Positions 1 to 12,811 of a DNA stretch of 12,811 bases are shown here, one piece after another. Positions within the stretch are counted from its first letter, which is position 1. The number at the start of each line of letters is the position of its first letter. The notes beneath the pieces were generated by a model. It was given only the letters and a program-made list of their open reading frames with translations. It had not been told where the DNA came from and searched no databases. The stretch is from a virus (lineage: Duplodnaviria > Heunggongvirae > Uroviricota > Caudoviricetes). The stretch is taken from IMG/VR virus record IMGVR_UViG_2609459798_000004; one strand, given 5' to 3'. Made by a program: the position numbers and the translations under genes.

Positions 1-2
1 CA

Positions 3-227
3 GGAAACACGACCCGCTTTATCAGTGGACACTTCCCTATACCATTCCCTAATCAGCCGATGGTTTCAGTCAGTGTTATGTCTGATGCCGTTCAGTCAGA
101 CCCGTCGAATCCTGCCCCGCAGGTTTTGTCTGTAAATTTTGAACATATCAGTAATTCAGCGTGGCGTGTGGCAACCAGTGATATCTCACAGCAATACAGA
201 TTCAGTTATATTTCGATAGGACGGTAG
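3..227 (+). CDS. Tail-fibre protein, C-terminal variable segment of the cassette currently in the plus orientation; 5' end lies outside the window
   Basis: Frame 3 is open from the window edge for 75 codons to TAG at 225-227 (not in the ORF track because it lacks a long Met-initiated stretch). It ends 2 bp before the ATG of the tail-fibre assembly gene, the usual fibre-then-chaperone arrangement. Position mirrors the minus-strand fibre cassette at 1244-1795. No family match recognised by eye, so identity rests on context. Confidence 0.45.
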   Translation, partial: GNTTRFISGHFPIPFPNQPMVSVSVMSDAVQSDPSNPAPQVLSVNFEHISNSAWRVATSDISQQYRFSYISIGR

Positions 228-229
228 AA

Positions 230-670
230 ATGCAGAAATATATTTTCAGTGCCGATAAAAATGCGTTTTTCCCTGTGGAGCTTAAAATCGCTTATCAGGA
301 ATCCGGCGAATGGCCCGGTGATGGAATCGAAATTGACGACACTGTTGCCGCCGAATTTATGAAGGAAGCACCAGAAGGAAAATACAGAGGTGTCATCGAC
401 GGAATGCCTGCATGGATTGATATTCCACCGCCAACTCATGAGGAACAAATTGCCGCAGCCGAACTGGAAAAGCAGCAATTGATTAATCAGGTCAACGAAT
501 ACATAAACAGAAAGCAATGGCCTGGTAAAGCGGCGATTGGTCGCCTGAAAGGTGGGGAACTGGCGCAATATAATTTGTGGCTGGATTATCTGGACGCACT
601 GGAACTGGTCGATACTTCCGGTGCGCCAGATATTGAATGGCCTACGCCTCCGGCAGTTCAGGCCAGATGA
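230..670 (+). CDS. Tail-fibre assembly protein (Tfa / P2 gpG-like chaperone)
   Basis: 146-aa ORF; AGGA-type SD upstream of ATG 230. C-terminus ...LWLDYLDALELVDTSGAPDIEWPTPP resembles the conserved C-terminal motif of Tfa-family chaperones as I recall it. Sits immediately downstream of the fibre C-terminal cassette. Confidence 0.8.
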   Translation: MQKYIFSADKNAFFPVELKIAYQESGEWPGDGIEIDDTVAAEFMKEAPEGKYRGVIDGMPAWIDIPPPTHEEQIAAAELEKQQLINQVNEYINRKQWPGKAAIGRLKGGELAQYNLWLDYLDALELVDTSGAPDIEWPTPPAVQAR

Positions 671-1244
671 CGTCTGGCGCTGTGCTGGTATCTGTTGCCG
701 TCACCGCGTCAATATAATCCAGCACAGCGTTAAGTCGGGTGTTTTCTGGCTGCGTCAGCTTCCGCCCGGCCTGTAATTTCAGCTGAATCAGACTGATGGA
801 AGCCATTGCAGCATCAATCAGCGACTGGCGCTGTGCTTCTGCCGCTTCTACTGCGGCGCTATGCTGTGCCTCGGTATCCGTCACCCATTTCTCACCATCC
901 CATTTATCGTATGGCGTTAACGGGGCGATAGTGGTTGTATTTTCAGGATAATCACCCGGAGCTGTGATTTCTTTCGATTCTCCTGTTTCGGTGCTATAGA
1001 TGATTTCACCGCGATGGTCTGGCACATATTCCCATGAGTTAAAATCTGCAGAACGGCAGATTGCATAACCAGCTTTATGTGTAACTGGTGCATCTAAACA
1101 AGAACATGCCGGGATACCGACGCCAACCGCAAGATATTCAGTTGATGTGGAAATATATTCCCGCGTTTCACCATCATAATTATAAATGGTAATGACTCCC
1201 GCTTTTATGGCAATGAGTTCGTTATTTAATACGGCTTTATTCAT
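642..1244 (-). CDS. Alternative tail-fibre assembly protein (Tfa') of the opposite-orientation cassette
   Basis: 200-aa ORF on the minus strand. C-terminus ...AVLDYIDAVTATDTSTAPDVIWPELPEA matches the Tfa-family motif. N-terminus MNKAVLNNELIAIKAGVITIYNYDGE... is, from memory, TfaE-like (e14 element). Its 3' end overlaps the plus-strand tfa by 29 bp (642-670), convergently. Confidence 0.8.
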   Translation of the reverse strand: MNKAVLNNELIAIKAGVITIYNYDGETREYISTSTEYLAVGVGIPACSCLDAPVTHKAGYAICRSADFNSWEYVPDHRGEIIYSTETGESKEITAPGDYPENTTTIAPLTPYDKWDGEKWVTDTEAQHSAAVEAAEAQRQSLIDAAMASISLIQLKLQAGRKLTQPENTRLNAVLDYIDAVTATDTSTAPDVIWPELPEA

Positions 1245-1795
1245 CAGGCAGCCCTCACGATATAATTAAAGGCAATGTTACGAGGACGGTTTTCGTTTGC
1301 AGTTGGAACAATTCTTGAAGCATCAAGGCCAATCACTTTTGGGTAAACAGCGCCATCTGTTCTTTCTGTCACCATACTTCTGATTAAGGAGAAATAACTA
1401 TTGTTCGTTGAGGGGTTCAAAGGCACTACTGCCCCCTTAAACGAGCCTACTGATTCCCATATTGAATAATTTTCGGTGTTTACAGTCTTGAACTCACCAT
1501 AGATATTACGTATGGCATCGCCCTGAGCGGATAATATTGCCCTCCCCGTATCCATACCACGTCCGTCATCCCAGCCACGAATAAACTCACCACGTAAATC
1601 AGGCAATTTATTTGTCGGGTAAGCCTTTGCCAGCTCCGGGTATTCTTCAGCAGAAAAAGCTGCTCCGTTGCATTTCAGCCAGCCTGTTGGCGGAGTGGCT
1701 GAAGGCCACGGAACAGGCACCCCAACAGGTAATGCAGAGCCTTCTCCCAAACCAACGTTTAAGAAAATGCAGAGGTAACAGCTAACTGGCATCAT
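1244..1795 (-). CDS. Alternative tail-fibre C-terminal variable cassette (Sv'-like); promoterless in this orientation, and the real reading frame enters at the crossover site near 1767
   Basis: 183-aa minus-strand ORF. Sequence ...GSALPVGVPVPWPSATPPTGWLKCNGAAFSAEEYPELAKAY... and C-terminus ...RNIAFNYIVRAA are typical of Mu S / P1 S / e14 StfE-type fibre tips as I recall them. Its stop (1244-1246) overlaps the start of Tfa' (ATGA). A hix-like crossover site lies within codons about 10-18, so the annotated Met is probably not the true N-terminus. Confidence 0.7.
   Translation of the reverse strand: MMPVSCYLCIFLNVGLGEGSALPVGVPVPWPSATPPTGWLKCNGAAFSAEEYPELAKAYPTNKLPDLRGEFIRGWDDGRGMDTGRAILSAQGDAIRNIYGEFKTVNTENYSIWESVGSFKGAVVPLNPSTNNSYFSLIRSMVTERTDGAVYPKVIGLDASRIVPTANENRPRNIAFNYIVRAA
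1742..1767. other. Candidate 26-bp recombination (crossover) site for the serine invertase (hix/gix/cix-like)
   Basis: TTCTCCCAAACCAACGTTTAAGAAAA: two imperfect 12-bp inverted half-sites (TTCTCCCAAACC / revcomp TTTTCTTAAACG) around a central AA dinucleotide. Compare hixL TTCTTGAAAACCAAGGTTTTTGATAA and gixL TTCCTGTAAACCGAGGTTTTGGATAA as recalled from memory. Located about 55 bp upstream of the invertase gene and inside the 5' end of the minus-strand fibre cassette, as in the Mu G and P1 C segments. Confidence 0.55.
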
Positions 1796-1822
1796 CTCCG
1801 GTTTTTATCCAGGGGGATGATC

Positions 1823-2389
1823 ATGCTTATTGGCTATGTACGCGTGTCAACAAATGACCAGAACACCGATTTGCAACGTAATGCACTGAACTGCGCGGGA
1901 TGTGAGCGGATTTTTGAGGACAAAATCAGTGGCACTAAGTCCGACAGACCGGGGCTGAAAAAACTACTCAGGACACTATCGGCAGGAGACACGCTGGTTG
2001 TCTGGAAGCTGGACAGGTTGGGGCGCAGTATGCGGCATCTTGTTACGCTGATAGAAGAGTTGCGCCAGCGTGGTGTGAATTTCAGAAGCCTGACTGACAG
2101 TATTGATACCAGTACCCCAATGGGCCGTTTCTTTTTTCATGTCATGGGTGCCCTGGCTGAAATGGAACGCGAACTGATAGTTGAACGTACCAGGGCGGGG
2201 CTGGCTGCAGCTCGTGATAAAGGCAGAGTAGGTGGACGCCGTCCTAAGTTGACCACCGAACAGTGGGCACAGATTGGACGCTTACTCGAGGCCGGAGAAT
2301 CAAGACAGCGTATTGCACTGATTTTTGATGTGGGTGTTTCCACAATTTATAGAAAATTTCCGGCAAATAAGAGTAATGAATCCCCCTGA
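1823..2389 (+). CDS. Serine site-specific DNA invertase (Pin/Gin/Hin/Cin family)
   Basis: N-terminus MLIGYVRVSTNDQNTDLQRNAL with the catalytic serine in VRVSTNDQ; conserved VVWKLDRLGRSM, GRFFFHVMGALAEMERELI and C-terminal HTH (GVSTIYRKF). The ORF track starts at ATG 1817, but AGGGGG at 1811-1816 gives good SD spacing only for ATG 1823, which also matches the family N-terminus. Confidence 0.9.
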   Translation: MLIGYVRVSTNDQNTDLQRNALNCAGCERIFEDKISGTKSDRPGLKKLLRTLSAGDTLVVWKLDRLGRSMRHLVTLIEELRQRGVNFRSLTDSIDTSTPMGRFFFHVMGALAEMERELIVERTRAGLAAARDKGRVGGRRPKLTTEQWAQIGRLLEAGESRQRIALIFDVGVSTIYRKFPANKSNESP

Positions 2390-2437
2390 ATCAGCATTAT
2401 TTTGATTATCCCTGCAAGCAGACAAATACCGTCATTT

Positions 2438-2455
2438 TGTGTGAATAACGGTACA
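2438..2455 (+). promoter_or_regulatory. Candidate Ogr-dependent late promoter element (TGT-N12-ACA dyad) upstream of FI
   Basis: TGTgtgaataacggtACA at 2438-2455, about 80 bp upstream of the FI start codon. P2 late promoters (PP, PO, PV, PF) carry a TGT-N12-ACA activator site centred near -55. No strong -10/-35 hexamers were identified by eye, so this is tentative. Confidence 0.3.
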
Positions 2456-2531
2456 ACTGCGCTTAGCTGTTTGTCAGGCACAATCACTTCAACATAGGGC
2501 GAAGCCTAATCCAATCAGGAGGTTCGCCACT

Positions 2532-3704
2532 ATGGCTCAGGATTACCACCACGGGGTGCGCGTTGTTGAAGTCAACGAAGGTACCCGATCCATTACCACG
2601 GTGAGCACCGCCATCGTGGGCATGGTCTGCACGGGCGATGATGCCGATGCAAAAATGTTTCCTCTTAATAAACCCGTGCTGATCACTGATGTGCTGACTG
2701 CCAGCGGTAAAGCGGGTGAGTCCGGCACGCTGGCCCGTTCGCTGGATGCCATCTCTGACCAGGCAAAACCCGTGACCGTTGTTGTGCGTGTGCCGCAGGG
2801 TGAAACGGAAGAAGAAACCACGACCAATATCATCGGCGCAGTGACTGCTGAAGGTAAAAAAACAGGCATGAAAGCCCTGTTATCTGCCCAGACACAGCTC
2901 GGCGTTAAACCGCGCATTCTCGGCGTGCCAGGTCACGATAACAAAGCCGTTGCGACTGAGTTGCTGAGTGTGGCGCAAAGCCTGCGTGGGTTTGCCTACC
3001 TGTCAGCGTATGGCTGCAAGACGGTACAGGAGGCGATCACTTACCGTGAAAACTTCAGCCAGCGCGAAGGAATGCTGATCTGGCCCGACTTTACTGGCTG
3101 GGACACGGTGCTGAATGCCGAAGCAACGGCATATGCCACCGCCCGTGCGCTTGGTCTGCGTGCCAAAATTGATGAGCAGACCGGGTGGCACAAAAGCCTG
3201 TCCAACGTGGGCGTGAACGGTGTCACCGGAATTTCTGCAGATGTGTTCTGGGATCTGCAGGACCCGGCAACCGATGCAGGTCTGCTGAACCAGAACGACG
3301 TCACCACGCTTGTGCGTAAAGACGGTTTCCGCTTCTGGGGTTCCCGCTGCCTGAGTGATGACCCGCTCTTTGCCTTCGAAAACTACACCCGCACGGCGCA
3401 GGTGCTGACGGACACAATGGCAGAAGCGCACATGTGGGCAGTGGACAAACCGCTGAACCCGTCGCTGGCGCGCGACATTATCGAGGGCATCCGCGCCAAA
3501 ATGCGCAGCCTGGTCAGTCAGGGGTATCTCATTGGTGGTGATTGCTGGCTGGACGAGTCGGTGAACGACAAAGACACTCTGAAAGCCGGAAAACTCACCA
3601 TCGACTACGACTACACGCCAGTGCCGCCACTTGAAAACCTGATGTTGCGTCAGCGCATCACCGATCAGTACCTGGTGAATTTCGCCAGCCAGGTCAGCGC
3701 GTAA
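2532..3704 (+). CDS. FI: Contractile tail sheath protein (P2 gpFI-like)
   Basis: 390-aa ORF with strong SD (AGGAGG) 6-7 nt upstream. Size and N-terminus ([39 protein letters not shown]...) match P2 FI sheath as recalled. Followed directly by the tube gene. Confidence 0.9.
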
Positions 3705-3713
3705 GGGGACAAC

Positions 3714-4229
3714 ATGGCTTTACCACGCAAATTAAAACACCTGAACCTGTTTAACGACGGGAACAACTGGCAGGGGATCGTTGAGTCGCTGACGCTGCCG
3801 AAATTCACCCGCAAATATGAGAAGTATCGCGGTGGCGGAATGCCGGGGGCAGTGGATGTGGATCTGGGGCTTGATGACAGTGCGCTGGACACAGAATTTA
3901 CCATTGGTGGTACTGAACTGCTGCTGTTTAAGCAGATGGGCAAAGCCACGGTGGATGGCATCCAGTTGCGCTTTACCGGCTCTATCCAGCGTGACGATAC
4001 CGGGGAAGTGCAGGCCGTGGAGCTTGTGGTGCGTGGACGTCACAAAGAAGTGGATTCCGGTGAGTGGAAGACGGGCGAAAGCAACACCACCAAAGTGACC
4101 AGTACCAACAGCTACGCGAAGCTGACCATCAATGGTGAGGTGCTCTATGAAGTGGACCTTATCAACATGGTGGAAATTGTGGACGGTGTGGACCTGATGG
4201 AAGCGCACCGCAACGCCCTCGGCCTCTGA
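3714..4229 (+). CDS. FII: Tail tube protein (P2 gpFII-like)
   Basis: 171-aa ORF 9 bp after FI, SD AAGGGGA. N-terminus MALPRKLKHLNLFNDGNNWQG... and size match the P2 FII tube protein as recalled. Confidence 0.9.
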   Translation: MALPRKLKHLNLFNDGNNWQGIVESLTLPKFTRKYEKYRGGGMPGAVDVDLGLDDSALDTEFTIGGTELLLFKQMGKATVDGIQLRFTGSIQRDDTGEVQAVELVVRGRHKEVDSGEWKTGESNTTKVTSTNSYAKLTINGEVLYEVDLINMVEIVDGVDLMEAHRNALGL

Positions 4230-4283
4230 TATATCTGAACGGCGCGGGATACCGCGCCAGAACCCAATTGACAGGACAGCAAA

Positions 4284-4586
4284 ATGAGCGATAAGCAGAC
4301 TGAAAAGACCATTCAACTGGATACCCCCATCAAGCGCGGTAAAACAGAAATCACCGAAATTGTGCTGCGTAAACCGCAGTCCGGTGCGCTGCGCGGTACA
4401 CGCCTGCAGGCCATTATGGATATGGATGTAAACGCGATGATGACCGTGATCCCCCGCATCTCCAGTCCGGCACTGACTGCACAGGAAATTGCAGAGATGG
4501 ACCCGGCAGATCTCACTGCCATGTCGGTTGAGGTTGTCACTTTTTTGTTGAAGAAGTCGGTGCTTGCCGGTTTACCGACAGCCTGA
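4284..4586 (+). CDS. E: Tail assembly chaperone gpE (zero-frame product)
   Basis: 100-aa ORF between tube and tape-measure genes, the position of P2 E. Contains a TTTTTTG slippery site near its 3' end. Confidence 0.8.
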   Translation: MSDKQTEKTIQLDTPIKRGKTEITEIVLRKPQSGALRGTRLQAIMDMDVNAMMTVIPRISSPALTAQEIAEMDPADLTAMSVEVVTFLLKKSVLAGLPTA

Positions 4587-4720
4587 CGGTTGACGATCTG
4601 GTGGCAGATATCGCCACCATTTTTCACTGGCCGCCATCCGTTACTGACGTTATGCCGCTGACCGAAGTGCTGGAATGGCGGTATAAAGCGATTCAGAGAA
4701 GCGGGGCCAACGATGAGTGA
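4284..4720 (+). CDS. Tail assembly chaperone gpE+E' produced by programmed -1 ribosomal frameshift
   Basis: After a -1 shift at T TTT TTG (4541-4547) the -1 frame stays open for about 58 codons (FFVEEVGACRFTDSLTVDDLVADIATIFHWPPSVTDVMPLTEVLEWRYKAIQRSGANDE) to TGA at 4718-4720, overlapping the T start codon (4713). Geometry matches the conserved P2 E/E' (lambda G/GT-like) frameshift. Confidence 0.6.
4541..4547 (+). other. Slippery heptamer TTTTTTG for the -1 frameshift in E
   Basis: T TTT TTG read in the E frame as ACT TTT TTG; the same heptamer is the P2 E/E' frameshift site as recalled. Confidence 0.6.
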
Positions 4721-7700
4721 TAACAACCTGCGTCTGCAGGTCATTCTTAATGCGGTTGACAAGCTCACCCGCCCATTTCGATCTGCGCAGGCCAGTTCAA
4801 GAGAACTGGCTGCTGCTGTCAAAAAATCCCGCGATGCAATAAAGCAGCTTGATCAGGCCGGGAGCAGTCTGGACAGCTTCCGAAAGCTGCAGGCAGAAAA
4901 TCAGAAATTAGGCGACAGGCTGAACTATGCCCGCCAGCGTGCAAATTTGCTCAGTCAGGAACTGGGAGCGATGGGGCCGCCTTCGCAACGTCAGGTTGTT
5001 GCTCTGGGCCGTCAACGGCTGGCTGTTCAGCGCCTGGAAGAACGCCAGAAAAAGCTGCAGCAGCAGACGGCGCTTGTGCGTGCTGAACTGTACCGGGCGG
5101 GAATTTCTGCGAAAGACGATGCGGGAGCAACTGCCCGTTTAGCCCGTGAAACATCACGTTATAACCAGGAACTTTCGAAACAGGAGGCGCGGCTGAAGCG
5201 ACTGGGGGAAGCTCAGCGCAGGATGAATGCAGCGCGTGCCAGTTATGCCCGTTCGCTGGAGGTGCGTGATCGTATTGCAGGTGCCGGAGCCACCACCACG
5301 GCTGCAGGGCTGGCAATGGGTGCGCCAGTGATGGCGGCAGTAAAAAGCTATACCAGCATGGAAGATGCCATGAAAGGTGTGGCAAAGCAGGTCAATGGTC
5401 TGCGTGACGATAATGGCAACCGCACTGCACGTTTTTATGAAATGCAGGATGCCATCAAGGCTGCCAGCGAACAGTTGCCGATGGAAAACGGTGCGGTGGA
5501 CTTCGCTGCACTGGTTGAAGGTGGTGCGCGCATGAACGTCGCAAACCCTGACGACAGCTGGGAAGATCAGAAACGTGACCTGCTGGCCTTCGCCAGTACG
5601 GCAGCAAAGGCGGCAACAGCCTTTGAGCTGCCAGCGGATGAACTGTCAGAAAGTCTGGGGAAAATCGCCCAGCTCTACAAAATCCCCACCCGCAATATTG
5701 AACAGCTCGGTGATGCGCTGAACTATCTGGATGATAACGCCATGTCGAAAGGGGCAGACATCATTGATGTGATGCAACGTCTGGGCGGTGTGGCTGACCG
5801 TCTGGATTATCGTAAAGCGGCGGCGCTGGGTTCCACCTTCCTGACACTGGGCGCTGCGCCAGAGGTTGCAGCCAGTGCAGCAAACGCGATGGTGCGTGAA
5901 TTGTCCATTGCCACCATGCAAAGCAAGAGTTTCTTTGAAGGGATGAATCTGCTGAAACTCAATCCTGAAGTGATTGAAAAGCAGATGACGAAGGATGCGA
6001 TGGGAACTATCCAGCGTGTGCTGGAGAAGGTGAACGCACTGCCGCAGGACAAGCGTCTGTCTGCCATGACCATGTTGTTTGGTAAAGAGTTTGGTGATGA
6101 CGCGGCGAAACTGGCAAACAACCTTCCGGAACTGCAGCGCCAGCTAAAACTGACAGCGGGCAATGATGCGCTCGGTTCCATGCAGAAAGAATCCGACATC
6201 AACAAGGACTCACTTTCTGCTCAGTGGTTGCTGGTTAAAACCGGAGCGCAGAATACCTTCAGCAGCCTGGGCGAAACGCTGCGCCAGCCGCTGATGGATA
6301 TTCTGTACACGGTGAAAAGCATTACGGGGGCGTTGCGCCGCTGGGTGGAAGCTAACCCGGAACTGACAGGCACACTGATGAAAGTAGCGGCTGTTGTGGC
6401 TGCGGTTACCGTAGGCCTCGGCACCTTAGCGGTGGCGCTGGCTGCAGTGCTGGGGCCGCTGGCAGTGATCCGTCTGGGATTCTCTGTGCTGGGTATCAAA
6501 ACGTTACCTTCCGTTACGGCAGCAGTAACTCGAACCAGCAGCGCGTTGTCCTGGCTGGCTGGAGCACCACTGGCACTGCTGCGACGCGGGCTTGCTTCAT
6601 CGGGCAACGCCGCAGGTTTACTTACTGCGCCGTTGTCGTCTTTGCGCCGCACGGCATCACTGACGGGAAATGTCCTGAAAACTGTAGCAGGTGCGCCGGT
6701 TGCACTGTTGCGGTCTGGATTATCCGGTTTACGTGCGGTTGCTGTGATGTTTATGAATCCATTGGCAGCACTACGCGGCGGGCTGGCTGCCGCAGGCACG
6801 GTGCTGCGAGTACTGGCATCTGGTCCACTAGCGATGTTGCACGTTGCCCTGTATGCCGTATCTGGTCTGTTAGGTGCTCTGCTTAGTCCGATAGGTCTTG
6901 TGGTTACTGCACTGGCGGGGGTGGCACTGGTTGTCTGGAAATACTGGCAACCCATCACCGCATTTCTCGGTGGCGTGGTGGAAGGATTCAAAGCGGCGGC
7001 AGGTCCCGTCAGTGCAGCGTTCGAACCGCTTAAGCCTGTGTTCCAGTGGATTGGCGACAAAGTGCAGGCGCTATGGGGCTGGTTTACTGATCTGCTGACG
7101 CCCGTTAAGTCGACCTCTGCCGAACTGCAGAGCGCAGCGGCAATGGGGCGACGATTCGGGGAGGCACTGGCGGAAGGGCTGAATATGGTTATGCATCCGC
7201 TGGACTCCCTGAAATCCGGCGTTTCCTGGTTGCTGGATAAACTCGGCATTGTCAGTAAAGAGGCTGCAAAGGCGAAACTGCCGGAAAGCGTGACGCGTCA
7301 GCAACCTGCGACGGTGAATGCAGACGGTAAAGTAATGATGCCATCGGGTGATTTTCCGTCATGGGGATATGGCTTTGCGGGGATGTATGACAGCGGCGGC
7401 TATATCCCGCGCGGGCAGTTTGGCATCGTCGGTGAAAACGGGCCGGAAATTGTTAACGGCCCGGCAAACGTGACCAGCCGGAGAAATACAGCTGCACTGG
7501 CTGCCGTTGTCGCCGGAATGATGGGTGTTGCTGCCGCGCCAGCAGAGCTTCCACCGTTGCATCCTTTGGCGCTTCCCGCAAAAGGCGGTGAAGCGATGGT
7601 GAGTCGTGCAGCTACTGTGCCGCCCATTTACCGGATTGAAGCACCGACGCAGATCATCATCCAGACACAGCCAGGACAAAGTGCGCAGGATATTGCGCGG

Positions 7701-7790
7701 GAGGTGGCCCGCCAGCTTGATGAACGTGAACGCAGGCTGAAGGCAAAAGCCAGGAGTAACTACAGCGATCAGGGGGGATACGACGCATGA
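4713..7790 (+). CDS. T: Tail tape measure protein (gpT-like)
   Basis: 1025-aa ORF. N-terminal region is coiled-coil-like (charged, Q/R/L-rich). Middle has hydrophobic Ala/Leu/Gly-rich segments with degenerate repeats (PLALLRRGL, PVALLRSGL, PLAALRGGL). C-terminal ...YDSGGYIPRGQFGIVGENGPEIVNGPANVTS is typical of tape-measure C-termini. Located between E/E' and U. Confidence 0.9.
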   Translation: MSDNNLRLQVILNAVDKLTRPFRSAQASSRELAAAVKKSRDAIKQLDQAGSSLDSFRKLQAENQKLGDRLNYARQRANLLSQELGAMGPPSQRQVVALGRQRLAVQRLEERQKKLQQQTALVRAELYRAGISAKDDAGATARLARETSRYNQELSKQEARLKRLGEAQRRMNAARASYARSLEVRDRIAGAGATTTAAGLAMGAPVMAAVKSYTSMEDAMKGVAKQVNGLRDDNGNRTARFYEMQDAIKAASEQLPMENGAVDFAALVEGGARMNVANPDDSWEDQKRDLLAFASTAAKAATAFELPADELSESLGKIAQLYKIPTRNIEQLGDALNYLDDNAMSKGADIIDVMQRLGGVADRLDYRKAAALGSTFLTLGAAPEVAASAANAMVRELSIATMQSKSFFEGMNLLKLNPEVIEKQMTKDAMGTIQRVLEKVNALPQDKRLSAMTMLFGKEFGDDAAKLANNLPELQRQLKLTAGNDALGSMQKESDINKDSLSAQWLLVKTGAQNTFSSLGETLRQPLMDILYTVKSITGALRRWVEANPELTGTLMKVAAVVAAVTVGLGTLAVALAAVLGPLAVIRLGFSVLGIKTLPSVTAAVTRTSSALSWLAGAPLALLRRGLASSGNAAGLLTAPLSSLRRTASLTGNVLKTVAGAPVALLRSGLSGLRAVAVMFMNPLAALRGGLAAAGTVLRVLASGPLAMLHVALYAVSGLLGALLSPIGLVVTALAGVALVVWKYWQPITAFLGGVVEGFKAAAGPVSAAFEPLKPVFQWIGDKVQALWGWFTDLLTPVKSTSAELQSAAAMGRRFGEALAEGLNMVMHPLDSLKSGVSWLLDKLGIVSKEAAKAKLPESVTRQQPATVNADGKVMMPSGDFPSWGYGFAGMYDSGGYIPRGQFGIVGENGPEIVNGPANVTSRRNTAALAAVVAGMMGVAAAPAELPPLHPLALPAKGGEAMVSRAATVPPIYRIEAPTQIIIQTQPGQSAQDIAREVARQLDERERRLKAKARSNYSDQGGYDA

Positions 7791-8272
7791 TGATGGTGCT
7801 GGGATTGTACGTGTTTATGCTGCGCACCGTGCCGTATCAGGAGCTGCAGTATCAACGCAGCTGGCGACATGCGGCAAACAGCCGGGTAAACCGACGTCCG
7901 TCCACGCAGTTTCTGGGACCGGACAACGACATGCTGACGCTTTCCGGTGTTCTTATGCCGGAGATAACAGGCGGCAGGCTGTCGTTGCTGGCACTGGAGC
8001 AGATGGCAGAACAGGGGAAAGCATGGCCCCTGATTGAAGGCAGTGGCACGATTTATGGCATGTATGTGATTGAGGGACTGAATCAGACTAAAACGGAGTT
8101 TTTCCGCGACGGTATGCCGCGCCGGATTGAGTTCACCCTGTCGCTCAAACGGGTGGATGAATCCCTGTCCGATATATTCGGTGATCTCAGTGCGCAACTG
8201 AATAATCTGCAGGACACAGCAACGTCTGCCTTAAGCGATATCAGTAAAACGGTGGGAGGGCTGCTGTCATGA
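7787..8272 (+). CDS. U: Tail protein gpU-like
   Basis: 161-aa ORF overlapping the T stop (ATGATGATG). N-terminus MMMVLGLYVFMLRTVPYQELQYQRSWRH... resembles P2 gpU as recalled; ...WPLIEGSGTIYGMYVIEGLNQTKTEFFRDGMPRRIEFTLSLKRVDE is conserved in the family. Confidence 0.85.
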   Translation: MMMVLGLYVFMLRTVPYQELQYQRSWRHAANSRVNRRPSTQFLGPDNDMLTLSGVLMPEITGGRLSLLALEQMAEQGKAWPLIEGSGTIYGMYVIEGLNQTKTEFFRDGMPRRIEFTLSLKRVDESLSDIFGDLSAQLNNLQDTATSALSDISKTVGGLLS

Positions 8273-9369
8273 ATTTCAGCTCTGAACTGCTTAACAAAGG
8301 CAACAAAACTCCCGCATTCAGCATCAGTATTGAGGGCAGGGATATCACCACTGTGCTGGATAACCGCCTGATGAGTTTGACGCTGACGGACAATCGGGGC
8401 TTTGAAGCGGACCAGCTTGATCTGGAACTGGACGACGCCGACGGAAAAATCGTGCTGCCGCGCCGTGGTGCGGTTATTACGCTGGCGCTGGGCTGGAAGG
8501 GGCAGCCGCTTTTCCCGAAAGGGGCATTCACGGTGGACGAGATTGAACACACTGGCGCACCGGACCGCCTGACTATCCGGGCGCGAAGTGCTGATTTTCG
8601 TGAAACGCTGAATACCCGCCGTGAAAAGTCGTGGCACAAGACCACCGTCGGGGAAGTGGTGAAGGAAATAGCTGTGCGGCACAAACTGAAGATGGCATTG
8701 GGTAAAGACCTGTCAGATAAACCCGTGGAACATATAGACCAGACCAATGAGAGTGACGGCAGTTTTCTGATGCGGCTGGCGCGCCAGTACGGTGCTATTG
8801 CGTCGGTGAAAAATGGCAATCTGTTATTCATCCGGCAGGGACAGGGTAAAAGCGCCAGCGGTAAACCACTACCGGTTATCACTATCACACGTAAGGACGG
8901 CGACAGTCACCGCTTTACCCTGGCAGATCGCGGAGCCTACACGGGCGTAATTGCCAGCTGGTTGCATACCCGCGAACCCGCGAAGAATGAAAGCACCACG
9001 GTGAAGCGTAAGCGCAGGACTAAGAAGCAGAAGAAAGAGCCGGAAGCGAAGCAGGGCGATTACCTGGTGGGTACAGATGAAAACGTGCTGGTACTTAATC
9101 GCACCTATGCCAACCGGAGCAACGCCGAACGGGCGGCGAAAATGCAGTGGGAACGCCTGCAACGCGGCGTTGCGTCATTCTCGCTACAACTGGCAGAAGG
9201 TCGGGCAGATCTCTACACGGAAATGCCAGTGAAAGTCAGTGGCTTTAAACAGCCGATAGATGATGCGGAATGGACCATTACGACTCTGACGCATACCGTC
9301 AGCCCCGATAACGGTTTTACAACCAGTCTGGAGCTTGAAGTGAGGATTGATGATTTCGAAATGGAATGA
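8269..9369 (+). CDS. D: Tail protein gpD-like (late control D / baseplate-hub family)
   Basis: 366-aa ORF overlapping the U stop by 4 bp (ATGA), in the P2 D position immediately upstream of ogr. Confidence 0.85.
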   Translation: MNFSSELLNKGNKTPAFSISIEGRDITTVLDNRLMSLTLTDNRGFEADQLDLELDDADGKIVLPRRGAVITLALGWKGQPLFPKGAFTVDEIEHTGAPDRLTIRARSADFRETLNTRREKSWHKTTVGEVVKEIAVRHKLKMALGKDLSDKPVEHIDQTNESDGSFLMRLARQYGAIASVKNGNLLFIRQGQGKSASGKPLPVITITRKDGDSHRFTLADRGAYTGVIASWLHTREPAKNESTTVKRKRRTKKQKKEPEAKQGDYLVGTDENVLVLNRTYANRSNAERAAKMQWERLQRGVASFSLQLAEGRADLYTEMPVKVSGFKQPIDDAEWTITTLTHTVSPDNGFTTSLELEVRIDDFEME

Positions 9370-9459
9370 TTCTTCGCAATGGAGAACTTTTAAGTTTGCA
9401 AAATGGAATAATGCGGTATCATTATTGTGAATTTAGCAAAAATGGGGAGAACTCGAAAA

Positions 9460-9678
9460 ATGATGATTTGCCCACTGTGTGGAAGTGCCGCCCATACTCG
9501 CAGCAGTTTTCAGGTATCTTCATTGACTAAAGAGCGTTACAACCAGTGCCAGAACATTAACTGCAGCCATACTTTTGTTACCCATGAAACTTTTGTTCGT
9601 TCGATTGCAACGCCAAAAGAGTCAAATCCGGTTCAGCCGCATCCAATGAAATCAGGACAGGTGGCGCTCTCTCTTTGA
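9460..9678 (+). CDS. ogr: Ogr/Delta-family zinc-finger late transcription activator
   Basis: MMICPLCGSAAHTRSS...YNQCQNINCSHTF has the C-x2-C-x22-C-x4-C zinc finger of Ogr. The ORF track starts at GTG 9427, but GGGGAGA (9445-9451) is placed for ATG 9460, giving about 72 aa as in P2 Ogr. Confidence 0.85.
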   Translation: MMICPLCGSAAHTRSSFQVSSLTKERYNQCQNINCSHTFVTHETFVRSIATPKESNPVQPHPMKSGQVALSL

Positions 9679-9758
9679 CGCTGCCGCCATTTTGTCGCCA
9701 TCGTTAAAAAACAGTGTTTCTAACATCATGATTTTAAACAGCTTAAATTTCAGGCAAC

Positions 9759-9801
9759 AAAAAACCCATCAACCTTGAACCGAAATGGCGGGGTTGATGG
9801 G
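9759..9801 (-). terminator. Candidate rho-independent terminator (minus strand), about 115 nt downstream of ybjL
   Basis: On the minus strand: CCCATCAACC, 17-nt loop, GGTTGATGGG, then TTTTTT (perfect 10-bp stem at 9765-9774 / 9792-9801, A-run on the plus strand at 9759-9764). No T-run follows on the plus strand, so it is not obviously bidirectional. Confidence 0.5.
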
Positions 9802-9913
9802 CTCCACAAAATGGGGACATCAAAGAAAAGCAGTGGCACTAATTAAGACTGATGCCCTGCGGAAAAGTTCTGCGGTTGTGCAAAAAAATTTCATTTTCAG
9901 GGCAACTTCAGTT

Positions 9914-11599
9914 TTATCCTAATCCTGGCCATACCATGACGATGATTGTCCCTGCCAGCGTCAGCAGGACGTTGGCGATTGCATAGGTGCCCGCATAGCC
10001 CAGCGCCGGGATGTTACTGCGAGCTGTATCACTGATGATCTCCATTGCCGGCGCGCAGGTACGTGCGCCCATCATTGCGCCGAACAACAGCGCGCGGTTC
10101 ATTCGCAATACATAAGCACCGAACAAGAAACAGATAACCACGGGCACCAGACTGACAATCAATCCGGCAATCAACATCTGACCGCCAATCGCGCCCAGGC
10201 CGTTATTAATACCGCTACCGGCGCTCAGACCAACGCCTGCCATAAACACCATCAAGCCGAACTCTTTCACCATGCTTAATGCACCCTGCGGAATGTAACC
10301 GAAGGTCGGGTGGTTAGCACGCATAAAGCCCAGCATAATTCCGGCGAATAACAACCCGGCAGCGTTCCCCATGCCGAAACTGAATGTGCTGAACTGGAAG
10401 GTGATCATCCCGATCATCAGCCCAATAACAAAGAAGGCGCAAAATGCCAGCAGGTCAGTGACCTGGCTGTGAATCGAGATAAAGCCGATGCGATCGGCGA
10501 TGGTTTTTACGCGACGGGCATCACCGCTGACTTGTAAAACGTCACCTTTGTTAAGCACGACGTTGTCATCTATCGGCATCTCAATCTGGCTACGAATGAC
10601 GCGGTTAAGGAAGCAACCGTGATCGGTCAACTTCAGTTGTGCGAGACGTTTACCTACAGCGTTATGGTTTTTAACGACCACTTCTTCAGTGACGATACGC
10701 ATGTCGAGAAGGTCACGATCGAAAACTTCTTTACCGTTACGGAAGCTGGGATCGAGTCGGGCATGGGCGTCGGGATAGCCTACCAACGCTATTTCATCGC
10801 CCATTTGTAGCACGGCATCACCGTCTGGATTTGCCAGAATCCCGTTACGTCGAATACGTTCAATGTAGCAGCCGGTTTGTCGATAAATACCCAGTTCACG
10901 CAGATTTTTGCCGTCGGTCCAGGCCACCAGCTCCGGGCCGACGCGATAGGCGCGGATCACCGGTAAATAAACCTTACGGTTGGCATCAGTGTCCAGGCCA
11001 CGTTCGCGGGCGATTTGCTGGGCGCTGGTCTGTAAGTCCTGATGCTGCAATTTCGGCAAGTAACGCGCACCAACAATCAAACTCACCAGACCGATTAAAT
11101 AGGTTAAGGCATACCCGAGGCTCAGATTATCCAGTGCCAGTGAGAGCTGCCTGCTTTCCATGCCGGAATGACGCAGTGTATCGCCAGCACCGACCAGAAC
11201 CGGTGTCGACGTCATAGAGCCTGCTAACATACCGGCCGTCAGGCCAATATCCCAGCCAAACAGCTTACCTAACCCTAAGGCGATCACCAGCGCACTGCCA
11301 ACCATCACCAGTGCTAACATTAGGTAATTTTTCCCATCGCGAAAAAAAATGGAAAAAAAGTTCGGTCCGGCTTCAACCCCAACACAGAAAATAAACAGCA
11401 TAAAGCCAAGATTAAGCGCATCGGTGTTAATGCTGAAATGTTGTTGGCCTAATAACAGCGATACGACTAAAACGCCAATGGAATTACCCAGTTGGATCGA
11501 ACCAAGTCGTAACTTTCCGAGACATAGCCCAAGCGCGAGGACCACAAATAATAACAGAATGTAATTCCCATTTAACAATTCGGCGACGTTTATATTCAC
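9914..11599 (-). CDS. ybjL: Putative transport protein YbjL (AAE/YidE-family membrane transporter)
   Basis: 561-aa ORF with GTG start; N-terminus [42 protein letters not shown]... and the hydrophobic / soluble-domain / hydrophobic layout match E. coli YbjL as recalled. Adjacent divergent ybjM fits the chromosomal gene order. Confidence 0.85.
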
Positions 11600-11868
11600 G
11601 GAGGCTAACTTCTTGTTTACTAGTAAGCTGTTGAAAGAAATGGTAATTTACGATAATGTTTTTTACCAGAATTCAGGGCGCAGATTCATTCAGCGCACCT
11701 AAACGATAGTAAAGTAACAATATATTTTACTAGTGTAATCACATTAGGTATCAACGGCTATATGAATTGCGTTGGCCTATATTAGCATGGAATGCGAAGC
11801 GGCTTTATCTTACTGAACGCCACACTGGCGAAAAATGTGTTCGATAGACGCAGTGTCAGGAGGAACGA

Positions 11869-12246
11869 GTGAAACATAAACAACGTTGGGCGGGGGCAAT
11901 CTGCTGTTTTGTCCTCTTCATTGTGGTGTGCCTTTTTCTGGCGACGCACATGAAAGGCGCTTTTCGGGCTGCCGGGCATCCTGAAATCGGCTTGCTATTT
12001 TTCATTCTTCCTGGAGCAGTCGCCAGCTTCTTTTCACAGCGTAGAGAAGTCCTGAAACCTCTGTTTGGCGCAATGCTGGCGGCACCCTGTTCGATGCTCA
12101 TTATGCGGCTGTTTTTTTCACCGACGCGCTCATTCTGGCAAGAGCTGGCATGGTTATTAAGTGCGGTGTTCTGGTGTGCGCTGGGGGCACTGTGTTTCTT
12201 ATTTATCAGTAGTTTGTTTAAACCACAGCACAGAAAAAATCAGTAA
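11869..12246 (+). CDS. ybjM: Inner-membrane protein YbjM
   Basis: 125-aa hydrophobic ORF with GTG start 4 nt after SD CAGGAGGA; divergent from ybjL and followed by grxA on the opposite strand, as in the E. coli chromosome. Confidence 0.8.
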   Translation: MKHKQRWAGAICCFVLFIVVCLFLATHMKGAFRAAGHPEIGLLFFILPGAVASFFSQRREVLKPLFGAMLAAPCSMLIMRLFFSPTRSFWQELAWLLSAVFWCALGALCFLFISSLFKPQHRKNQ

Positions 12247-12275
12247 AGCCCTCAACGCGAGGGCTTGTCAGACGA

Positions 12276-12425
12276 TCAGGCGTCCAGATTTTCTTTCACC
12301 CATGCAGCAAAATCGGTATAGCCGCCGATATGTTGCTGATCGACAAAAATCTGCGGCACGGTTTCTACGGGTTTACCTGCCTTTTGTTGTAGATCTTCTT
12401 TAGTGATCCCTTCCGCACGAATATC
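12276..12425 (-). pseudogene. grxA: Glutaredoxin 1 gene, 3' fragment only (about 49 codons), truncated by IS1
   Basis: Minus-strand translation DIRAEGITKEDLQQKAGKPVETVPQIFVDQQHIGGYTDFAAWVKENLDA-stop matches the C-terminal half of E. coli GrxA as recalled. The reading frame runs straight into the IS1 terminal repeat at 12426; the N-terminal part with the CPYC active site is absent from this side. Confidence 0.8.
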
Positions 12426-12811
12426 GGTAATGACTCCAACTTATTGATAGTGTTTTATGTTCAGATAATGCCCGATGACTTTGTCATGCAGCTCCACCGA
12501 TTTTGAGAACGACAGCGACTTCCGTCCCAGCCGTGCCAGGTGCTGCCTCAGATTCAGGTTATGCCGCTCAATTCGCTGCGTATATCGCTTGCTGATTACG
12601 TGCAGCTTTCCCTTCAGGCGGGATTCATACAGCGGCCAGCCATCCGTCATCCATATCACCACGTCAAAGGGTGACAGCAGGCTCATAAGACGCCCCAGCG
12701 TCGCCATAGTGCGTTCACCGAATACGTGCGCAACAACCGTCTTCCGGAGCCTGTCATACGCGTAAAACAGCCAGCGCTGGCGCGATTTAGCCCCGACATA
12801 GCCCCACTGTT
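12426..12811 (-). mobile_element. IS1 insertion sequence, IRR end (partial; continues beyond window)
   Basis: Begins GGTAATGACTCCAACTTATTGATAGTGTTTTATGTTCAGATAATGCCCGATGAC..., matching the IS1 right terminal inverted repeat as recalled, followed by the insB coding region on the minus strand. Confidence 0.9.
12441..12811 (-). CDS. insB: IS1 transposase InsB, 3' portion (5' end outside window)
   Basis: Minus-strand frame is open from the window edge: ...[122 protein letters not shown]-stop, matching IS1 InsB as recalled. The ORF track shows only the Met-initiated part, 12441-12707. Confidence 0.85.

Follow-up and report, generated by a model that had tools for sequence, protein, structure and literature searches.

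An IS1 insertion interrupts the chromosomal glutaredoxin 1 gene grxA of Escherichia coli in a sequence that ends within the element

The 12,811-nucleotide stretch of DNA analyzed here, referred to in the following as the window, carries the 3′ end of grxA joined directly to part of IS1, a transposable element common in E. coli. E. coli grxA is a non-essential redox gene that encodes glutaredoxin 1, belongs to the OxyR regulon and lies in a wild-type locus with the order ybjM–grxA–ybjC–nfsA. Our preferred reading, to which we assign a probability of about 0.88, is that a 768-bp IS1A element transposed into codon 37–39 of the chromosomal E. coli grxA gene, in the same orientation as the gene. 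The following features were recognized at this end of the window:

11869–12246, plus strand: ybjM, the intact convergent neighbor (from the list of open reading frames and the annotation of the identical sequence in locus L001)
12246–12266, minus strand: terminator-like hairpin immediately past the grxA stop, between ybjM and grxA (terminator scan)
12276–12425, minus strand: 3′ fragment of grxA (glutaredoxin 1), codons 37–85 and a TGA stop (translation)
12418–12425, no strand assigned: IS1 target-site copy abutting the right inverted repeat (IRR), CGAATATC; the second copy is 776 bp away in relatives
12426–12811, minus strand: first 386 bp of IS1 (IS1A type) from its right end, with transposase and grxA read in one direction; the element is truncated where the window ends
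12426–12448, no strand assigned: right terminal inverted repeat of IS1, GGTAATGACTCCAACTTATTGAT
12441–12811, minus strand: 3′ part of insB (InsAB′ transposase), with a TAA stop at 12441–12443 and 122 C-terminal codons (12441–12809)

The grxA fragment at 12276–12425 translated in frame as 49 codons and a stop, DIRAEGITKEDLQQKAGKPVETVPQIFVDQQHIGGYTDFAAWVKENLDA, corresponding to residues 37–85 of the 85-residue GrxA protein. An IS1 insertion truncating grxA had been predicted from the sequence, with the 3′ end of the gene at 12276–12425, IS1 from 12426 onward and about 49 C-terminal codons remaining; translation, profile matches and identity to a known IS1 copy bear out these coordinates, and the codon count is exact. 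The fragment matched the NCBIfam profile NF008401 (GrxA family glutaredoxin) over profile positions 37–84 of 87 with an E value of 1.7e-24 and 85.8 bits (cut-off 84), while its score against TIGR02183 was 77.8 bits, below the cut-off of 106.5. What the window holds is a gene fragment and not a full-length GrxA equivalog, and the CPYC redox motif is absent from its translation. All 150 of its 150 nucleotides are identical to a feature annotated as “grxA, incomplete, missing N-terminus” in NZ_CP104681.1.

Wild-type sequence, identical to that of 17MR471 with its intact grxA, makes up the 3′ 150 nt of the gene as well as the terminator hairpin and ybjM, which converges on grxA. In the allele described here, the 108 nt at the 5′ end of grxA, CPYC codons included, are split off from the remainder. 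The hairpin consists of a 9-pair stem, AAGCCCTC...GAGGGCTT, followed by a T-run, and the 3′ end of the grxA locus is intact. Because the intact ybjM adjoins the grxA fragment, the chromosomal context is ybjL–ybjM–grxA. With ybjC–nfsA found past IS1 in relatives, the gene occupies its conserved position between ybjM and ybjC.

The IS1 end, GGTAATGACTCC..., starts exactly at 12426, abutting grxA codon 37. From there to 12811, the sequence agrees at every base (386/386) with the IS1A of E. coli 2022CK-00450, and it equals positions 1–386 of the 768-bp IS1 in loci L001 and L003 when numbering starts at the IRR. The right terminal repeat pairs with the left repeat ATCAGTAAGTTGGCAGCATCACC of L001 over 23 nt with 78% complementarity, 722 nt apart, so that terminal repeats of about 23 bp typical of the IS1 family (GGTRATG...CCAACTTAYTGAT) are accounted for on the right in the window and on the left in L001. 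The insB fragment belongs to an IS1-type DDE transposase: it matched PF03400 (DDE_Tnp_IS1) over profile positions 10–131 of 131 (E = 9e-72, 240 bits) and NF033558 (IS1 family transposase) with 120.1 bits against a cut-off of 100. The 100% identity over 386 bp, the 23-bp repeat GGTAATGACTCC... and the C-terminal end of DDE_Tnp_IS1 are all shared with the IS1A/IS1R-type elements of E. coli and Shigella, from which we found no structural difference except that the window contains only half of the element. With both parts 100% identical to annotated genes in complete genomes, the junction is far beyond chance.

The grxA frame had been described as running without interruption into IS1 at 12426. 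It does cross the junction, but it remains open for only five codons (VGVIT) before the TAA at 12441–12443, which is the insB stop and is in frame with the grxA fragment, so that the minus-strand translation across the junction reads ...HYQ* VGVIT DIRAEGITKEDLQQKAGKPVETVPQIFVDQQHIGGYTDFAAWVKENLDA*. A fusion of GrxA with InsB, in either order, was considered and rejected on account of this in-frame insB stop five codons before the grxA fragment. A fusion from the 5′ side was likewise rejected, as the 5′ grxA fragment of related genomes stops six codons into the left repeat.

The other side of the element was examined in genomes that share the junction. A probe of 200 nt centered on the grxA/IS1 junction was searched in 5426 complete E. 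coli genomes and gave a single uninterrupted 100% match in four of them: 2022CK-00450, isolated from urine in the USA; KMi029, from river water in Japan; and Z226-5 and Z226-6, from one patient in China. The last two have been reported as the same strain (PMC11368089). In the three carrier loci examined (2022CK-00450, KMi029 and Z226-5), the RefSeq annotation gives the order “grxA, missing N-terminus” (150 nt), IS1A, 5′ grxA fragment and ybjC–nfsA. The 5′ fragment is a 117-nt glutaredoxin feature labeled “missing C-terminus”, corresponding to the 5′ 39 codons, with CPYC at residues 11–14. The N-terminal part with the redox motif had been predicted to be displaced or lost; in these relatives it is displaced, by 776 bp, and not lost. 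The IS1A between the two fragments is complete at 768 bp, with its coding sequence annotated as having a programmed frameshift (insA/insB′), and the frameshift motif GTTTTTT (AAAAAAC) is visible in L001 near 7283. In carriers of this exact allele nfsA is untouched, with a 240-residue NfsA annotated.

The 8-bp sequence CGAATATC was found on both sides of IS1 in L001, L003, L004 (Z226-5), L022 and L023, forming a direct repeat (D3) with a spacing of 776 nt in L001, and occurs only once in the intact grxA of 17MR471. IS1 normally generates a target duplication of 8 or 9 bp (PMC12428005); such a duplication is present in the relatives, and the window itself shows one copy. Because the closed carriers contain a complete 768-bp IS1, the 5′ part of grxA and the duplicated CGAATATC, the allele in the carrier genomes is a simple IS1 insertion with an 8-bp duplication. 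The elements that the original prediction had said to look for past 12811 (the remainder of a 768-bp IS1, the 5′ part of grxA and the target duplication) were all found in the relatives, and the identical junction in closed genomes supports its view of a genuine insertional inactivation of a chromosomal redox gene. By analogy with these relatives, the window's own genome would continue past 12811 with the rest of IS1, a second CGAATATC, the 5′ 39 codons of grxA, the grxA promoter and ybjC–nfsA, and the event would have been a simple transposition with an 8-bp staggered cut.

The window stops 386 bp into IS1, and this position proved to be a common one: a look-up of the partial InsB product expected at the edge of the window returned a large number of unrelated draft contigs breaking off at exactly this point of the element, 386 bp from its right end (L030–L036; 358 blocks indexed). 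The end at 12811 is therefore almost certainly just an ordinary place for a draft assembly to break, in a multi-copy repeat at which short-read assemblers would be expected to stop. Assemblers thus have a reproducible break point inside IS1 in NCBI drafts, which is relevant when contig ends are read; a contig broken 508 bp from the left end, such as the draft contig L024, would share 126 nt with one broken 386 bp from the right end. A common contig end in what is probably a fragmented short-read assembly could suggest that a collapsed IS1 repeat had been attached wrongly to the end of the contig and that grxA is intact in the cells. We regard such an artefact as highly improbable, since 386 bp separate the junction from the edge of the sequence, and since the identical junction, the complementary one and the target duplication all occur in closed genomes of isolates from three countries (USA, Japan and China). 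The complementary junction also appears across hundreds of blocks in the sequence collections, and a wrong join would not fall on the very site at which other sequences have a proper 8-bp duplication. The artefact that the original prediction had named as its own refutation thus does not apply to this junction.

Of the 5426 complete E. coli genomes, 5408 have grxA in one piece, 10 have only part of it and 8 lack it. IS1 ends were located at several places in the gene, counting from the last base of the stop codon:

127–135: EcPF5, opposite orientation, 9-bp duplication
143–150: the allele described here, same orientation as grxA, 8-bp duplication
167: IMT16316 and EC19, 664-bp deletion into nfsA
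174–182: SW071610, 9-bp duplication
227: WP5-W18-ESBL-11, 873-bp deletion into nfsA

GN03551 has a further IS1 copy in ybjC, and 17MR471 has one where ybjC and nfsA overlap. In ETEC4091, which has lost nfsA, an IS1 lies between ybjC and rimK. An apparent shared orientation of the IS1 copies near grxA was rejected as meaningful, because the search joined pieces on one strand only; EcPF5, found with a grxA-only query, has the opposite orientation.

An IS1 in grxA can also mark the place where the element has caused neighboring DNA to be deleted or inverted, and sequence other than 5′ grxA, possibly nfsA or rimK, would then follow the element in the window's genome. IS1 joins the grxA region to nfsA or rimK, with no target duplication, in four to five genomes (WP5-W18-ESBL-11, IMT16316, EC19 and ETEC4091). 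Nitrofuran resistance is known to arise when nfsA is lost, IS1 being known to cause such losses (PMC8767348), and a secondary deletion starting from the left end of IS1 would leave the junction in the window unchanged. However, none of these deletion alleles uses the site at 143–150, their ends on the grxA side being at 167, 227 and 453, and every sequence found that has the exact junction and spans IS1 (L001, L003, L004, L022 and L023) is a simple insertion with the duplication. We consider a deletion or inversion unlikely, and a simple transposition into grxA remains our preferred explanation.

The grxA–ybjC–nfsA region as a whole has seen repeated, independent IS1 activity within about 1.5 kb (L002, L005–L010 and L014), including simple insertions in grxA, in ybjC and in the ybjC/nfsA overlap, as well as deletions with IS1 at their edge, in which nfsA has lost its 5′ part or is missing altogether. 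SW071610, which has IS1 in grxA, additionally has an internal stop in nfsA. In a draft genome with the same tape-measure protein as the window (L019 17822–18765, GCA_029533395.1), ybjC, nfsA and rimK are missing between grxA and ybjN with no IS1 at the gap, making this an nfsA-loss allele of a different origin. Inactivation of nfsA by IS1 is a described route to nitrofurantoin resistance (PMC8767348). The pattern of IS1 in grxA–ybjC–nfsA probably reflects nitrofuran selection acting on a region that IS1 likes. The resistance alleles, with IS1 in ybjC/nfsA or bridging grxA to nfsA, involve the same element in the same 1.5-kb neighborhood as the insertion described here; in the latter, however, it is grxA that was struck, and the genomes that share the exact allele have an unbroken nfsA. 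To our knowledge, IS1 in grxA confers no drug-resistance benefit.

The allele can be found, already annotated, in hundreds of E. coli assemblies in public databases. The 5′ remnant in carriers encodes a 45-residue peptide (MQTV...DIRVMLPTY) comprising 39 GrxA residues followed by VMLPTY from the left end of IS1. An exact look-up in a large protein collection returned this peptide on 188 contigs, with 399 blocks in the index, and partial versions of 37–39 residues on about 200 more. Among the carriers of the remnant are a closed genome that lacks the neighboring prophage (L022), a 970-kb metagenome contig that has it (L023) and a draft contig that ends 508 bp into IS1 from the left (L024), in which the left end of IS1 adjoins CGAATATCTACATAGTGATACTG..., from 5′ grxA. 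Both halves of the split gene had already been annotated as pseudogenes by PGAP; the allele is known in this sense, present and annotated as a split pseudogene in public databases, and represents an ordinary event. A literature search on grxA together with IS1 found nothing specific. An exact 34-mer of the grxA/IS1 junction had no matches in the viral_contigs, metagenome_contigs or genome_contigs collections, the phage collection did not contain this locus but only IS1 copies and Salmonella ybjL relatives, and a look-up of the 1025-residue tape-measure protein for contigs extending past 12811 returned only long contigs with an intact grxA. Many other truncated GrxA variants were found in the protein collection (P0001–P0038), including frameshifts and other fusions; a 55-residue frameshift form (P0011) is present on 119 contigs, and partial forms are named from Shigella. 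Because of these many variants, grxA pseudogenization is seen to be sporadic but recurrent in E. coli and Shigella.

The right-hand part of the window is closely matched in the carriers. Positions 9640–12811 are base-for-base identical to 2022CK-00450, and 10826–12811 to KMi029, which is an ST216 isolate (supplement of PMC11832570); all differences from these two lie in the prophage, on the left side of the window. The two genomes differ from each other by only 13 nt over 23.7 kb. Because the prophage part of the window is about 200 nt different from these two ST216-type carriers, the source strain is not simply one of them. The insertion is the derived state, because locus L021, which is 99.89% identical to the window over 1804–12425, including both prophage and backbone, has an intact grxA.

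Across the carriers, the same IS1 site, orientation and 8-bp duplication occur on three 5′ grxA haplotypes:

P9/H28/H34: the common haplotype
S9/R28/Q34: Z226-5 (L004 1601–2376)
P9/R28/Q34: two ENA metagenome contigs (L025 760–790)

These haplotypes bear on whether the allele arose once. The identity of site, orientation and duplication in all carriers would be expected if they descended from one insertion, making the allele a pure lineage marker, with the flanking haplotypes acquired later by recombination or mutation. The close similarity of KMi029 and 2022CK-00450 is consistent with such a descent, as is the fact that most contigs on record share one 5′ haplotype (P0039, on 188 contigs). 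Z226-5, however, is about 510 nt away from the ST216-type carriers over 23.7 kb, counting differences in the left flank and at three positions within IS1, and one difference, the nearest distinguishing SNP, lies only 6 bp beyond the duplication. The third haplotype carries the same junction in metagenome contigs, and both backbone haplotypes also exist with an intact grxA (17MR471 and L021). Only 13 nt separate the junction from the nearest SNP, and a recombination break in that interval is improbable; we regard a single origin as possible but rather doubtful. Independent hits on one site are the more parsimonious account of these haplotypes, compared with descent plus recombination. On balance, we lean toward CGAATATC being an integration hot spot for IS1 that has been hit independently at least two to three times, and/or toward loss of glutaredoxin 1 being mildly favored in some lineages, and away from one inherited neutral accident. 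Three further IS1 ends fall within 135–227 nt of the 3′ end of grxA. Loss of glutaredoxin 1 could be favored, for example, through slower re-reduction of OxyR.

The predicted consequence of the insertion is the loss of glutaredoxin 1. With grxA split, the promoter-proximal piece would make only the 45-residue peptide, in which the thioredoxin fold lacks its C-terminal half. The distal piece would have no start codon of its own and be preceded by the in-frame insB stop. From what is known of the thioredoxin fold, neither fragment should give an active glutaredoxin. E. coli tolerates the loss of glutaredoxin 1, for which thioredoxin and the other glutaredoxins of the Trx/Grx systems act as backup. 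The most plausible phenotype, judging from general knowledge, would be slower OxyR re-reduction. The insertion should have no polar effect, given that grxA is monocistronic and that ybjM runs toward it.

The carriers fit the suggestion in the original prediction of an IS1-rich lineage: all four closed genomes (4/4) have at least 40 IS1-containing pieces per record, compared with a median of 10 places per genome, a level of at least 40 being reached by about 390 records. As for the remainder of the window, positions 1–9678 comprise the late/tail module of a P2-like prophage, with tail fiber genes, sheath, tube, the 1025-residue tape measure, gpU, gpD and ogr, and about 235 bp separate the end of the prophage from ybjL. 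Coverage of the window reaches 80% or more in about 520 of the 5426 complete genomes. Compared with each of the relatives examined, the prophage is a mosaic; positions 4000–6000 are near-identical to the ST216-type carriers, and 6000–9640 are about 130 nt different. The grxA::IS1 allele is known from a locus that has the prophage (L023) and from one that lacks it (L022). Window positions 1–1292, with the tail fiber and tail fiber assembly genes, align in inverted orientation to 2022CK-00450, and the inverted segment is adjoined by a gene for a 190-residue serine recombinase (1817–2389), with Resolvase and HTH_7 domains in the homologous loci. This segment looks like an invertible host-range segment of the Gin/Cin type, and the left end of the window, lying inside it, may be the other assembly break.

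The allele amounts to a natural glutaredoxin 1 knock-out in a lineage of E. coli rich in IS1, with ST216-type isolates among its members, and as such it matters little. It can serve as a cheap lineage marker, and it recalls that a contig stopping within IS1 conceals the other half of a disrupted gene. The neighboring IS1-linked deletions are relevant to nitrofuran-resistance surveillance, through nfsA, and recurrent use of one 8-bp site would be a small data point on the target choice of IS1. For the biology of E. coli, the carriers offer a natural background in which to ask whether loss of glutaredoxin 1 alters OxyR shut-off or oxidant tolerance.
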